IMG/VR virus record: IMGVR_UViG_2778261639_000005
Source of the DNA: a virus
Lineage: Duplodnaviria; Heunggongvirae; Uroviricota; Caudoviricetes
DNA: 17,896 nucleotides
Reading direction: 5' to 3' (one strand)
Part shown: piece by piece, positions 9,180 through 16,265 of the stretch
Position numbering within the stretch: the stretch's first letter is position 1
Layout: the number at the start of each line of letters is the position of its first letter
Translations under genes and position numbers: made by a program
The notes under the pieces: model-generated
Told to the model about the DNA's origin: nothing
What the model saw: only the letters and a program-made list of their open reading frames with translations
The model's database searches: none

Positions 9180-9575
9180 ATGATCACTTACGTGACCTGT
9201 GATGACGTTGATAATGCGTTTGGGAACGCCTGGACGAGTGAGAACGCTAAAAATAAAGCTGTTTTAATGGCTAATGCCTGGCTTAATGGCTTCAACCTGA
9301 AAATTAACCCATCCCGTATTCCGGAAGAGGTAAAACTTGCGGGAGCATATGCAGCCAGAATTGCCTCATTCGGTAAGTTGTTTCAGCAGAAAAATGATTC
9401 TGGCGTTGTTATCAGTAAAGCCGTGTCGGCTGACGGGGTCAGTGTATCGAAATCATTTTCTGAGTTGCCAGCAAACAGCACTGCATTGCTTGAACCCGAT
9501 TTACAGCTTGCGATAGCACTGCTGAAACCGTACGGACTTAGTCGCTCACAAGTCAGGGTTGTGAGGGGGGGATAA
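9180..9575 (+). CDS. Head-tail connector / head completion protein (putative)
   Basis: 131-aa ORF with CAGGAG SD at 9167-9172 and ATG 9180; first of four tightly coupled small genes between capsid and major tail. N-terminus loosely resembles the gp6-like connector family. Confidence 0.5.
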   Translation: MITYVTCDDVDNAFGNAWTSENAKNKAVLMANAWLNGFNLKINPSRIPEEVKLAGAYAARIASFGKLFQQKNDSGVVISKAVSADGVSVSKSFSELPANSTALLEPDLQLAIALLKPYGLSRSQVRVVRGG

Positions 9576-9958
9576 TGGGGCTTCGTGAAGAGATTCAGTC
9601 AGAGGTTGCCGCTGCTTTTGATGAGGATTTAGCGGACGCCGTGAGTGATTTTTCTGGTTCTTACGTTACGCACCGGCACTGGGATCCTGTGACGGAAACT
9701 GGCGGCGAATCCACCGCAATCTATACCGGGCGAGGCGTGTTGACACGTTATAAGCTGGGCAGAATTGATGGGATTAATATTTTGCATGGTGACCTTAAAT
9801 TAACCGCTCTGGTATGCGAGGTTACGGATAAACCAGCTGTCGACCATATTATTGAGATTTATGATCCTGTATCAAGGCAGTTACAACGATACGAGGTAAT
9901 TACAGCAAGTGTAGATCCTTCCGCATCAGTTTACTCTATCCAGTTAAGGAGAGCGTAA
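9575..9958 (+). CDS. Head-tail joining / head closure protein (putative)
   Basis: ATG 9575 overlaps the upstream stop TAA 9573-9575 by 1 nt, with a G-rich SD upstream; 127 aa; position in the operon. Confidence 0.4.
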   Translation: MGLREEIQSEVAAAFDEDLADAVSDFSGSYVTHRHWDPVTETGGESTAIYTGRGVLTRYKLGRIDGINILHGDLKLTALVCEVTDKPAVDHIIEIYDPVSRQLQRYEVITASVDPSASVYSIQLRRA

Positions 9959-10754: not shown

Positions 10755-11717
10755 GTGAGTTCAGGTGCAAAGGTTATCTCGGCATTTATCCGGGAGACGG
10801 TTGCAGGCACTACGCCAGCAAGTGGTGACTGGAGTTTATTAAAACGCACAAGCTGGGGAGTAAAACCCACCCAGAATAAAGGCGAAAATAATGAGATTGG
10901 TGGCTCCCGGATGGCTCAGGGGGCGACGCCTGGCACTGTGGATGTCGGCGGTGATGTTGGTACCAAATTTCGCTGGGGTCAACATGATGATTTTCTTGCA
11001 TCCTGTTTCGGCGCGGAATGGTCAGGCGATTCTCTGACAATGGGGAATGAGCGAATAACATTTTCTCTGGCGACCTATGCGTCCGATGTCGGAATTGCCT
11101 CTGTCGTCAGAGGAGCGCAGGTTGGCTCATGGAAAATGCAGATCCCTAACGACGGCGATATTACAGCGACCGTAACCTTTGCCGGACTGGACTGGGAATC
11201 AAAGGCCGATGATACGAATTTTATCAAAGGCGAACCTGTGGATAGTGCAGGAAAGCTACGTTATTCGTTTAAGGAGGTTTCAGCAGTAAGCCTGAATGGT
11301 GTTGCCGGAGGTAACGGTTTTTGTATCGACAGTTTTGATATTCAGTTCGATAACAAACTCCAGACACAGCGTTGTATCGGGACTGGCTCGCCTTATGCAG
11401 GAGCAAATATTCCGACTACTTTTACACCGTCCGGTACGGTGACGCTTTCATGGTCTAAAGCCGCGTGGGAAATCTGGAGTAAAACACTGACTGGAGAAAC
11501 AGTTCCGTTCAGCTTCACGCTTTCGAATGGAGAGGGGGCATACACTTTCAGTTTCCCGAAGGTTCAGGTGTCAGGTGAATGGCCTGATGGGGGTAATAGC
11601 GACATTATCCAGGTTCAATTGAGCATTACCGCAGCAGATGAAGCACCTACGATAACCAGAAAAAAAAATTCCCCGGCTGCCGTGATCGCAAAAGCCAGTG
11701 CTGAGGCGATTAGTTGA
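10755..11717 (+). CDS. Major tail (tube) protein
   Basis: GTG start 10755 with GGAGG SD at 10744-10748; 320 aa, Gly/Ser/Thr-rich and beta-rich; immediately upstream of the chaperone and tape measure genes. Confidence 0.6.
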   Translation: MSSGAKVISAFIRETVAGTTPASGDWSLLKRTSWGVKPTQNKGENNEIGGSRMAQGATPGTVDVGGDVGTKFRWGQHDDFLASCFGAEWSGDSLTMGNERITFSLATYASDVGIASVVRGAQVGSWKMQIPNDGDITATVTFAGLDWESKADDTNFIKGEPVDSAGKLRYSFKEVSAVSLNGVAGGNGFCIDSFDIQFDNKLQTQRCIGTGSPYAGANIPTTFTPSGTVTLSWSKAAWEIWSKTLTGETVPFSFTLSNGEGAYTFSFPKVQVSGEWPDGGNSDIIQVQLSITAADEAPTITRKKNSPAAVIAKASAEAIS

Positions 11718-11765
11718 TTTTCCGTTATTCCTCCTGTGGTACTGCCCTACAGGGGGACGCATTGA

Positions 11766-12227
11766 ATGAGGTTATGGATGTTTATTCTTAATCAGAAAAT
11801 TATCATTGGTGGAGAACGCTGGTTTACGCCAATGAAGGACTTAAAACCTGTAGACGGGTTAAAACTGTTGGTGGCAAGCAGCGATAACGATCAGTATCGC
11901 TCCCGTAATGCATTAATCCGTCGCCACATTGAGAAAATGGATGCCAGTTTGCACGTCGGAACGAAGGAGTTTGATATTTCAAAGGTTTCCGAGGTGGATT
12001 CTGTTGATGATTTACTCATTGATAATGCCGCTCGTTATCTGCTGAAAGACTGGAAAGGGGTTGGTGAACTGGTTAATGGTGTTGAGGTTGCACTGGAATA
12101 TACGGCAGAACGAGGGATCGCGCTGCTTAAGCAGAATCCAGAGTTGTACTGGCAGATCCTTGCAGAAGCAGCCAGCATCGCCCAGGGTAAAGAGCAGCAG
12201 AAGCAGGATACGATAAAAAAGCCATAG
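11766..12227 (+). CDS. Tail assembly chaperone (G-like)
   Basis: ATG 11766 with GGGGGA SD 8 nt upstream; 153-aa acidic protein between major tail and tape measure genes; a slippery heptamer sits 4 nt before its stop TAG 12225-12227. Confidence 0.6.
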   Translation: MRLWMFILNQKIIIGGERWFTPMKDLKPVDGLKLLVASSDNDQYRSRNALIRRHIEKMDASLHVGTKEFDISKVSEVDSVDDLLIDNAARYLLKDWKGVGELVNGVEVALEYTAERGIALLKQNPELYWQILAEAASIAQGKEQQKQDTIKKP

Positions 12228-12535
12228 CTGCCCAGCGGTGGTTATCGGAGTTCGGGGGAGAAAGGGGGGAAAAGGCAAGATGGAAGCGAGAAAAACTCAG
12301 GTTGCCACCGATACCGGAACCAGAAATAGACCCGGTGCTTAAGGAGTTGTTGTACGCCTATTCGGTAATATCCCGTGCCCGACGTTATGCTGGAATGGCT
12401 GGGGTGCCTTTGCCTTTATCTCTGACAGAGATAAATGAATATTTAGCCACTCATCCGGTATTGATTGAGCGCGATGAATTTGAAGCAGTGATCTTTGCAC
12501 TGGATGACCAGTATTTTCAGGAGCAGTGTGTGTAG
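11766..12535 (+). CDS. Tail assembly chaperone frameshift fusion (GT-like), predicted -1 shift at 12215-12221
   Basis: The -1 frame is open from 12191 to the TAG at 12533-12535 and overlaps the end of the G-like ORF. The A_AAA_AAG heptamer at 12215-12221 is phased as AAA AAG in the zero frame. The track ORF 12302..12535 is the downstream part of this frame. Confidence 0.5.
12215..12221 (+). other. Programmed -1 ribosomal frameshift slippery site A_AAA_AAG
   Basis: Heptamer AAAAAAG with correct zero-frame phasing near the 3' end of the chaperone gene, and an open -1 frame downstream. Confidence 0.55.
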
Positions 12536-12655
12536 TTGTTAATTACGTACACTCTGTTACAGAGATGTGATGGTGTCTTTAATTAAATCGATGATGCTCC
12601 TGGAGAAAAGCATTGCGTGGCCTCGTAATCGCTATATCTACTATTATGTCGCCTG

Positions 12656-12680
12656 AAACCCACTTCGCGGTGGGTTTTTT
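12656..12680 (+). terminator. Terminator-like hairpin between the chaperone and tape measure genes
   Basis: AAACCCAC(12656-12663)-TTCGCG-GTGGGTTT(12670-12677) gives a perfect 8-bp stem followed by TTT, 20 nt upstream of the tape measure SD AGGAG (12687-12691). Confidence 0.55.
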
Positions 12681-12700
12681 GTTGTCAGGAGTTTTAATAA

Positions 12701-15700
12701 ATGGCAGAGCAAACCTCGCGTCTCGCAATAATTATTGATAGCACTGGAGCGAAAAATAATGCTGACAATCTGACCTCCTCATTAGTCAAAATGACGCAGG
12801 CTGGGGAAACTGCTGCAAATAGCGCAGGGAAAGTGACTAAGGCAACAGAAGATGAGAAGAACGCGCTCGCAAAATTAAAAGCAGCTATTGATCCAGTTGG
12901 TGCCGCAATTGATACTGTCGGTCGACGCTATTCTGAATTAAAGAAATTTTTCGATAAAGGGCTTATTGATAAAGAAGAATATGAATTTCTTGTCCGTAAA
13001 CTTAATGAAACCACAGAGGAATTGAGCGGGGTTGCGCAAGCGCAGAGAGAAGCCGAGAAGGCCGGAAAACTTGCTGCCGCCCAGCAGGAAGCGCAGGCTC
13101 AGGCCTTTCAAAGAATGCTGGACAAGATCGACCCTCTGGCTGCGGCGCTAAGAAATCTTGAACAACAGCATGATGAACTTAATGCTGCGTTTGCATCCGG
13201 GAAAATAAATGGTTCTCAGTTTGAGAATTATAGCCGAAAAATACAGGAAACACGGCGAGAGCTTACCGGAGAGGCTCAGGCAGAGCGAGAAGCAGCAAAA
13301 GCGCATGATGAACAGGTTGTTGCTTTGCAACGTCTGATTGCTCAACTTGATCCTGTCGGAACTGCTTTTAATCGTCTGGTAGAACAACAGAAACAGCTCA
13401 ATGAAGCAAAAGCTAAGGGGATGCTTTCTCCTGAAATGTATGAGGAGCTTTCTGGAAAACTTCGTGCTATGCGGAGTGAGCTTGAGGTTACTCAATCACA
13501 ATTAAGCAAAACCGGAATGTCGGCAAAACAAACGGCTTTTGCTATGCGCATGTTGCCTGCACAAATGACGGATATTGTTGTTGGGTTGTCCACTGGTCAG
13601 TCGCCATTTATGGTGTTAATGCAGCAGGGCGGCCAGCTAAAAGATATGTTCGGTGGGATTGGCCCGGCGATCAAAGGTGTAGGTTCTTATGTGCTGGGAT
13701 TAATTAATCCTTTTACCCTGGCCGCAGCAGCCGTTGGGGTCTTAGGACTGGCTTACTATAAAGGCTCTCAGGAGCAGGACGAATTTAATAAATCTCTTAT
13801 TCTTACCGGAAATCAGTTGGGGACAACCAGCGGGCAATTGGGCGATATAGCTCAACGTGCCGGGAATGCGGCTGATTCGACAACTGGTGCTGCGGCGGCA
13901 GTATTAAATCAGCTTGTGCGTTCGGGAAAGGTAGCGAGCAGTTCGCTGGAGCAAGTGACGACAGCGATAGTAAAAACGAGCGAAGTAACAGGAATATCAA
14001 CCGAACAACTGGTTAATGACTTCAATGAAATTGCAAAGGATCCTGTCAGTGCCATATCAAAACTTAATGATCAGTACCATTTTCTGACACTTGCGACTTA
14101 TAACCAGATTAAGGCGCTACAGGATGAAGGGAACCAGCAGGAGGCCGCCCGCATTGCGACAGAAGAATACTCATCCTCAATGATCCAGCGCACCAACCAG
14201 ATTAAAGAAAATCTTGGTTATCTTGAGACTGCATGGAAAGCTGTCGCAGACTCCGCAAAATGGGCATGGGATTCCATGCTGGATATTGGCCGTGAGGCCT
14301 CCCTTGATCAAAAAATCTCAGATGTTCTCCGTCAAATTGATGAAATAGAAAAAAATACCCGACCCGGAGTTTTCGGGTTAGGTGGCATTGGAGATGGCGG
14401 AGCTCAAAATAAAAGGCTGGCACGATTAAAGCAGCAATTGGGCGTACTTCAAGCAGAAAAAATTGCTCAGGACGTACTAAATTCATCAATAAACGATTAC
14501 AACAAGCGACAACAGGAAGGAATTGAACTCAGACAGAGAGCAGATGCCTTTTCAAAACAATATCAGACCCGGGAGCAGCAGAGAGCTAGTGAACTTGCAA
14601 AACTGGAAAAGCTAAAGAATCAGTATTCAAAGGAAGAATATAATAATCTTATCGCTCAAATAAATGAGCGTTATAAAGATCCAAAGCAACCAAAGGCGAA
14701 AGGTTATTCTGATGATGCAGCCCAACGAATGATTGATCATCTGAATCAACAGAATGCGTTACTAAGTTCACAAGCTGAGTTGACCGTTAAATTAAGTTCC
14801 TCTGAACAGGAACTGGTTAAGTGGCGTCAGCGGATTGCCGACCTAGAGTCACGACCATCAACGAAATTAACCCAGGATCAGAAATCGCTTCTCTTACACC
14901 GGGAAGAAATAACCGCGTTGATGGAGAAAAATGTTGCGATTGAAAAAAATAACAGGCTAATCAAGGAATCCGCCGAAATAACAGCATGGCGTGATTCATT
15001 GCAGGCTTCGATTGATAATCGTCAGCAGGGGTATGATATTCAGATTGCTGGTTATGGGGTTGGCGATAAAAATCAGCAACGCCAGCAGGAATTACTGCGG
15101 ATTGAACATGGATATAACAATCAGCGTCTGCAACTTGAACGTGACTATGCAGATAAATCCCGTGGAATGTCAGATCATGTTTTTCAAGAGAAAATGCAGG
15201 CTCTGAATGATGCTCTGGAACGGGAAAAAGAAATTGTCAGACAGAAAAACGAGCAGCTCGATATTCAGGCAGGAGACTGGGTTAGTGGTGCCTCCCAGGG
15301 ATTCAATAACTGGCTGGATGACACTAAGGATATCAGTGAGCAGATAAAATCAACCACGACTCAGATGTTTGATGGGATGACCGATGCGCTGGGTGATTTT
15401 GTCACGACAGGCAAGGCAAATTTTCGTTCTTTCGCTACTTCCGTGATTTCGGATCTTAGTCGAATAGCATTAAAGGCTTCAATTACTGGGATTTTCGACA
15501 GCATTAGTAACAGTTCTTCTGGGGGGATTTTAGGAACTATCGGGAGTGCTATTAGTAAATTTATTCCGAATGCAAAGGGCGGTGTTTATGAGTCTCCGTC
15601 ATTGAGCACGTATTCGAACGGTATTTATGATTCCCCGCAATTTTTTGCTTTTGCAAAAGGGGCTGGTGTTTTTGGTGAGGCTGGACCGGAAGCCATTATG

Positions 15701-15934
15701 CCATTAACACGAACTTCCGATGGTTCTCTTGGTGTCAGAGCTATTAATAGTAAAAGTGGTAATGGAGGCGGAGATATTACCTATGCCCCTGTATACCAAA
15801 TCACTATTCAAAATGACGGCCAGAATGGAGAGATTGGCCCTCAGGCAATAAAAGCACTTATGGGGATGGTTGATCAGCGGGTGCAGGGCAATCTGTTAAA
15901 TATGCGACGTGATGGGGGAATGTTAAGTGGCTAA
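12701..15934 (+). CDS. Tail tape measure protein (lambda H-like, 1077 aa)
   Basis: Long coiled-coil N-terminal half, central hydrophobic segment [39 protein letters not shown], and C-terminal [16 protein letters not shown]...RRDGGMLSG, which resemble lambda gpH as I recall it. Sits after the chaperone pair and before the M-like gene. Confidence 0.9.
12863..13510 (+). repeat. Three tandem protein-level repeats of about 65-75 aa in the tape measure N-terminal region
   Basis: Repeated pattern (I/L)DP(V/L)(G/A)...EL(S/T)G(V/E)AQA(Q/E)REA(E/A)KA at roughly aa 57-121, 137-201 and 209-270 of the tape measure protein. Confidence 0.5.
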
Positions 15935-16265
15935 TACGGAAGAATTTCACTGGTTACCAGAGGATGGAATGAAAACAGAAAATAAACCATCGATAAAAAC
16001 TGTAAGATTTGGTGATGGTTATGAGCAACGAAGTCCAAATGGACTTAATCATTCTCTGCGCGTTTTCACCTGTGATTTCAAAGTTGAGGCGAATGAACGT
16101 GATTCATTTGAAAAATTTTTAGCCCGGCATGAAGGCTATAAATCTTTTTTTTGGCGCCCGCCGGGTATTAACAGAAAAATCAGAGTGGTGTGTCGAACGT
16201 GGTCAGCGACAGAACATATCACCTATACCGATTTTTCGTGTCAGTTTGACGAAGTGGTGATCTGA
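15927..16265 (+). CDS. M: Minor tail protein M (lambda gpM-like)
   Basis: Motif [16 protein letters not shown] and ...KSFFWRPP...FDEVV match lambda M as recalled (VRFGDGYSQRAPAGLN ... KSFLWTPP ... FEQVV). GTG start overlaps the tape measure stop by 8 nt. 112 aa. Confidence 0.85.

Follow-up and report, generated by a model that had tools for sequence, protein, structure and literature searches.

We propose that two overlapping reading frames in the 17,896-nucleotide stretch of viral DNA analyzed here (hereafter, the window), G (11778–12227) and T (12221–12535), form a tail assembly chaperone pair of a Rac-type lambdoid siphophage that is expressed through a lambda-type −1 frameshift, and, from comparative sequence analysis, we put the probability of this reading at roughly 0.9. 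In the proposed mechanism, most ribosomes would translate G and terminate at the TAG beginning at 12225, and a minority would slip one base back on the heptamer A_AAA_AAG, where the P- and A-site tRNA-Lys would re-pair from AAA-AAG to AAA-AAA, and would then read 104 further codons to produce a 252-residue GT fusion. By analogy with lambda gpG and gpGT, coating of the tape measure protein would fall to G and the G portion of GT, and recruitment of the tube protein to the T portion; correct tail assembly would depend on a GT:G ratio that is low and fixed, and both proteins would be absent from the virion. We infer both that the change of frame at 12215–12221 is ribosomal and that G and GT have these binding partners.

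The G/GT class has been defined by a small set of features (after Levin 1993; Xu, Hendrix and Duda 2004), and the locus, in which G corresponds to the gene annotated YdaY in E. coli, appears to have every one of them that could be tested at the sequence level. These are the order of tube gene (10755–11717), two ORFs and tape measure gene (12701–15934); an overlapping −1 ORF, open from 12191 to 12535, with no start of its own before codon +27; a canonical in-phase heptamer within the overlap, at 12215–12221; and a conserved layout carrying a coding signature in both frames, seen in pN/pS and in a switch of the variable third positions.

The ORF pair fills the slot in which long-tailed phages carry their G/GT chaperones. 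Upstream on the plus strand lies the gene for the major tail tube protein (10755..11717), which matched Pfam Phage_tube_2 with an E-value of 9.4e-32 and is called 'phage tail tube protein' in RefSeq E. coli genomes. It is followed on the same strand by G (11778..12227, 149 aa), by the T segment (12221..12535, 104 codons plus a stop in the −1 frame), which would be the C-terminal part of GT, and by a lambda-type tape measure protein gene (12701..15934; Pfam TMP_2, E = 1.4e-81, and Tape_meas_lam_C, E = 3.9e-26). Pfam matches then identified a lambda M-like minor tail protein gene at 15927–16265, completing the order tube, G, T, tape measure, M-like minor tail protein. A run of nine A (11660–11668) falls within the final 20 codons of the tube gene, and a −1 shift there would swap the last 16 tube residues for 12 others. 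This run was A9 in 13, A7 in 20, A6 in 8 and absent from 13 of the 54 distinct relatives described below; it is not conserved, and we rejected it as a second recoding site. It could give rise to transcript heterogeneity.

Two start codons are candidates for G, an ATG at 11778 (149 aa) and an upstream ATG at 11766 (153 aa). A group of relatives (L062–L069) carries an in-frame TAG after the upstream ATG, between the two candidates, and the distant G homologues all start at the position of Met5, the second Met. On these two grounds we consider ATG 11778 the likely start, which would make G 149 residues long and GT 252. RefSeq often calls just a 119-residue 'YdaY', a gene model copied from the truncated gene of E. 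coli K-12.

Direct reading of 11600–12700 gave the zero-frame junction as ACG ATA AAA AAG CCA TAG. A preliminary description of this DNA had placed A_AAA_AAG at 12215–12221 in the correct phase, and this was borne out: on the plus strand the heptamer lies in the X_XXY_YYZ phase of the G frame. The same description had put the heptamer 4 nt before the stop of G; the closeness stands, and the count does not, since a single sense codon, CCA, separates the heptamer from the zero-frame TAG (12225–12227), a gap of 3 nt (a discrepancy of at most one nucleotide). Directly downstream of a TAA at 12188–12190, the −1 frame stays open from 12191 to a TAG at 12533–12535, so that, as had been stated, 104 sense codons follow the slip (12221–12532), encoding AIAAQRWLSEFGGERGEK...QEQCV. 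The proposal of a fusion is supported by the comparison of relatives below, and its length, given as roughly 255 aa, came to 252 aa when computed from ATG 11778 and to 256 aa from ATG 11766. It was also right that the ORF list represents the downstream frame solely as a separate 77-aa ORF with a TTG start (12302..12535).

The heptamer alone is at chance level in the window, where AAAAAAG occurs 6 times against 5.6 expected. Its combination with a −1 frame that outlasts the zero-frame stop is unusual. The 19 plus-strand genes of the window contain 27 in-phase X_XXY_YYZ heptamers, only two of which enter a −1 frame extending past the stop of the gene, the one at 12215–12221 and a G_GGG_GGA at 9566–9572. 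The latter occurs in phase in the final codons of the ORF 9180–9575, and its −1 frame enters the gene 9575–9958, which begins at an ATG of its own in a stop-start overlap (ATGA) with that ORF; this arrangement most likely reflects ordinary translational coupling rather than recoding.

Profile searches point to a tail assembly chaperone family for G. G matched phrog_313 ('Tail assembly chaperone') with an E-value of 4e-46 over profile positions 13–149 of 258, and T matched the C-terminal part of the same profile weakly (E = 0.0097, positions 173–246 of 258). T also had a strong match to phrog_1189 (E = 1.4e-36) and a weak one to Pfam Phage_TAC_18 (E = 0.0032, below the family cut-off). No matches came from a search of PDB sequences, from NCBIfam or, for G alone, from Pfam. 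When the predicted structure of G was compared with the PDB, the top match was the HK97 tail assembly chaperone (2ob9), with a weak structural score and 9% identity, and the first eight matches included yqbN and RBSTP2171, which we take to be prophage proteins of the tail assembly chaperone type; the model thus suggests that G may share the HK97, or 'spiral', chaperone fold. T was modeled as a five-helix domain (pLDDT 76), and the best viral structural matches of the model, all weak, include the 262-residue fused chaperone of Acinetobacter phage Loki.

The evidence that bears most directly on translation came from relatives of the locus. Eighty viral contigs and 15 genomic loci with G relatives yielded 94 usable loci comprising 54 distinct G-to-T sequences, with G identities of 55–100% and hosts that include E. 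coli, Shigella, Citrobacter, Raoultella, Siccibacter, Serratia, Pectobacterium, Pantoea and Scandinavium. At all 94 loci the frame of the T homologue is −1 with respect to that of G, with similarity in T beginning 1–4 residues from the heptamer. The homologous in-phase site reads AAAAAAG in 50 of the distinct relatives, GGGAAAG in three and GGGGAAG in one, such that 53 of 54 keep a canonical in-phase slippery heptamer; the zero-frame stop follows it at a distance of 3, 21, 75 or 105 nt. In the alignment of these relatives, variability falls on third positions of the G frame before the heptamer and on those of the −1 frame thereafter, and the seven bases of the heptamer itself vary only by exchange for another heptamer. 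Together with the synteny, these patterns support the earlier suggestion that the site matches the conserved chaperone frameshift of long-tailed phages.

Selection on the segment after the junction follows the same frame. Over the first 27 codons past the junction, pN/pS was 0.19 in the −1 frame compared with 1.41 and 1.35 in the other two; without overlap with G, in the 32 sequences whose G stop lies 3 nt past the heptamer, the values were 0.21 compared with 1.22 and 1.21. Between the upstream stop and codon +26 of the −1 frame, neither the window nor any of the 54 distinct relatives contains an ATG, GTG or TTG. Taken together, the frame, periodicity, selection and start-codon results argue that ribosomes read the stretch immediately 3′ of the heptamer in the −1 frame and reach it only from G.

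These observations also weigh on the possibility that T is a separate small gene with its own start, at TTG 12302, GTG 12335 or TTG 12350 depending on the annotator, next to which the heptamer would be incidental. The 77-aa ORF with a TTG start is consistent with such a gene, as are the free-standing hypothetical proteins of 61–66 aa listed by GenBank and RefSeq and the AAGGAG at 12341–12346, just before TTG 12347/12350. However, the 27 codons upstream of TTG 12302 are the ones under purifying selection in the −1 frame, and their residue-by-residue alignment extends to relatives with G identities as low as 55%. Most relatives at 81% identity or less do not have TTG 12302 itself, and in three lineages the first start codon comes no earlier than codon +45. 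The annotated starts disagree between records, with database gene calls for T taking arbitrary lengths of 60–138 aa. We therefore consider independent initiation of T very unlikely.

The identity of the slip site in relatives is informative about how the frame would be changed. The six consecutive A at the site might instead lead RNA polymerase to insert an extra A in some transcripts, so that the fusion would be read from heterogeneous mRNA rather than made by a ribosomal slip. For E. coli RNA polymerase to slip efficiently, an A/T run of about nine or longer is required; the site has A6 only, and what has been conserved is a heptamer in phase with a final G rather than a homopolymer whose length varies. 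It is established that such fusions can also arise by transcriptional slippage (PMC5009743), but the four relatives with GGGAAAG or GGGGAAG have no such run and share the same layout. Because relatives carry GGGAAAG, transcriptional slippage cannot be the conserved mechanism, and the chance that it accounts for the fusion is slimmer still than that of a T start. A ribosomal slip, the reading that we prefer, would explain the exchange of A_AAA_AAG for G_GGA_AAG at the YdaY junction by the nearly equal slip rates of the two heptamers in E. coli reporters (0.29% and 0.28%, respectively, without a stimulator; PMC4066793 Table S3).

Several relatives depart from the canonical motif at the homologous junction. 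Pectobacterium odoriferum has the variant G_GGG_AAG (L093, 2920–2926), Erwinia phage Gungnir39 has C_GCA_AAG followed at once by TAA (L103, 1986–1995), Pseudomonas phage Aurca01 has G_GAA_AAG (L101, 1887–1893), and Acinetobacter phage TRS1 reads ACG AAA AAA AGC (L102, 1490–1501). The A-site codon AAG is kept in the relatives from enterobacteria and Pseudomonas (L093, L103 and L101), where the P-site context is less strict and non-canonical.

A third explanation, that the two frames are a single gene split by a frameshift mutation in a defective prophage, with no recoding, has to be weighed against the distribution of the locus. The 1021-bp G–T region (11700–12720) is 100% identical to that of Salmonella phage SPF_0923 (ON032529), an isolated phage, and about 98% identical to those of nine induced E. 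coli prophages, and it is present in 1075 of 5426 complete E. coli genomes (about a fifth). K-12 strains keep it only from window position 11876 on, as the gene ydaY of the defective Rac prophage, adjoining the tape measure remnant ynaA. In MG1655 the Rac remnant (L099, 1493–2345) still includes the last 352 nt of G together with an undamaged heptamer, the complete T frame and the beginning of the tape measure gene, all at 100% identity to the window, and the MG1655 record leaves the T frame without annotation.

Consistent with decay are the defective Rac prophage of K-12, in which only the 3′ part of the G gene is left, and a few in-frame G–T proteins in the databases (P0001 and P0002) that resemble indel products. 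Decay is nevertheless the least credible of the alternatives we considered. The window has a complete-looking structural module, its G–T region is identical to that of an isolated phage, and the two-frame layout with its slippery site recurs in 54 distinct sequences from many genera, with purifying selection on both parts; we reject a random frameshift mutation because such a layout would not be so maintained. The in-frame fusions and the truncated T frames of three relatives (L023, L025 and L040) look like indels or decayed copies.

We found little in the flanking RNA that would stimulate a slip. The preliminary description had seen no obvious strong stem-loop downstream, and folding agreed with it: none of the segments 12222–12330, 12222–12270 and 12225–12290 folded better than shuffled sequences (z = 0.06, 0.5 and 1.65), and no stable stem-loop or pseudoknot of the kind that characterizes dnaX- or IS3-type stimulated frameshifting lies 5–9 nt 3′ of the heptamer. 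RNAalifold on 13 relatives returned −3.45 kcal/mol and 6 pairs with no covarying helix, folds of four relatives gave nothing better than shuffles, and the local hairpin immediately after the heptamer is not the same across relatives. An Rfam scan of 11600–12800 (E ≤ 1) had a terminator-like fragment as its sole match. A Shine–Dalgarno-like AGGA lies on the plus strand 6 nt 5′ of the heptamer (12205..12208), and AGGA or AGGAG occurs at this position in 51 of the 54 distinct relatives. Conserved Gln-Asp/Glu codons overlap this position and also fix its sequence; we consider the AGGA a possible weak stimulator.

The reporter measurements show how far the yield of a slip depends on its context. 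With the IS911 stimulator, A_AAA_AAG and G_GGA_AAG slipped at 4.3% and 3.8%, and with the IS3 pseudoknot at 39% and 43% (PMC4066793 Table S3). The heptamer by itself does not reveal the efficiency, and our guess is that slippage at 12215–12221 may be about 1–5%.

Hairpins occur on both sides of the G–T cassette. In the window, T and the tape measure gene are separated by a 165-nt spacer (12536–12700) that holds a small ORF of 28 codons (12571–12657; MVSLIKSMMLLEKSIAWPRNRYIYYYVA) and a terminator-like hairpin with a U-run (12655–12678) directly before the Shine–Dalgarno sequence and ATG of the tape measure gene. A hairpin with a T-run precedes the tape measure start in all nine relatives in which that start could be located, and it is kept whatever the length of the spacer, which ranges from 29 to 797 nt; the spacer of one relative (L057) carries the end of a Lom/Ail-like ORF. 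These findings suggest that the T–tape measure junction is an insertion hot spot for morons with a conserved hairpin. On the other side, five relatives (L070, L074, L091, L094 and L097) have a GC-rich hairpin and then a T-run immediately before the ribosome-binding site of G, and in the window the interval from the tube gene to G holds a hairpin at about 11730–11756 (CCTCCTGT...ACAGGGGG), without a T-run as judged by eye. The cassette therefore appears to be bracketed by terminator-like elements. We raise, tentatively and as a rather doubtful idea, that these conserved hairpins are partial terminators or RNA-stability elements, through which the stoichiometry of tube, chaperone and tape measure proteins would also be set at the RNA level. 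If so, the ribosomal slip would share control of this stoichiometry with RNA-level effects, at a locus whose T–tape measure junction would double as a hot spot for morons.

In the GenBank and RefSeq records that we inspected, no frameshift is annotated for G and T. GenBank labels the pair 'hypothetical protein' twice, or 'putative protein YdaY' and 'hypothetical protein', and RefSeq/PGAP uses 'protein YdaY' with 'hypothetical protein' or with nothing for T; the choice of T start differs between records. Our literature search, which did not extend to the survey of Xu et al. 2004, found nothing linking ydaY to a frameshift. The G/GT pair described here is thus a new example, unannotated in the records inspected, of a very well known and ordinary mechanism. 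Recognizing the frameshift would give a function to both ORFs and correct the proteome of a common prophage family. The locus also offers a natural experiment, in that A_AAA_AAG and G_GGA_AAG swap at one site and distant relatives have non-canonical P-site contexts before AAG. Existing understanding of recoding is unchanged by the YdaY/T site.

Comparison with known systems places the locus among several that share parts of its design. The dnaX frameshift of E. coli, which produces gamma and tau, is about 50% efficient, and of its two products the −1 product is shorter. The dnaX site uses the identical A_AAA_AAG and the same tRNA-Lys, and its frameshift depends on flanking mRNA structural barriers (PMC4344849) and on an upstream internal Shine–Dalgarno sequence (PMC5600365). 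The YdaY site differs in that it lacks a significant hairpin, has only a marginal AGGA 6 nt upstream and would yield a −1 product that is longer. The chaperone of HK97, the nearest structural match to G, is a 104-residue crystal chain compared with the 149 residues of G, and it differs from G as well in the low identity and weak score noted above.

Distant homologues of G, T or both, at 31–39% identity, were found by tblastn of phage records in Pseudomonas and Acinetobacter phages. The T homologue of Acinetobacter phage vB_AbaS_TRS1 is annotated, much as we propose here, within a 'tail assembly chaperone' CDS joined from two pieces, and a frameshift at AAAAAAC has been proposed for Acinetobacter phage Loki (PMC5313236). 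The slip sites of these phages differ from the one at 12215–12221, being ACG AAA AAA AGC in TRS1, AAAAAAC next to the stop in Loki and G_GAA_AAG in Aurca01, and all three phages, unlike the window, have extra genes between T and the tape measure gene.

The closest parallel is lambda gpG/gpGT, whose frameshift mechanism and G:GT ratio of about 30:1 have been described (PMC5009743). The likeness rests on layout, and at the sequence level the comparison was made with a single lambda-like chaperone, ECs1801 of the Sakai prophage Sp9. ECs1801 has no detectable similarity to G, which leads us to regard G as belonging to a different chaperone family and to reject its membership of the 'A_AAA_AAG_25 / ECs1801 tail assembly chaperone' cluster of Sharma et al. 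2014. In layout, the two systems share the slot between the tube (V) and tape measure (H) genes, a T in the −1 frame without its own start, a slip near the end of G with the Lys codon AAG in the A site, and no evident requirement for RNA structure. They differ in the 165-nt spacer with its terminator-like hairpin, present here between T and the tape measure gene, and in the heptamer, which is A_AAA_AAG here and G_GGA_AAG in lambda; the lambda heptamer is itself used by three relatives of the YdaY locus.
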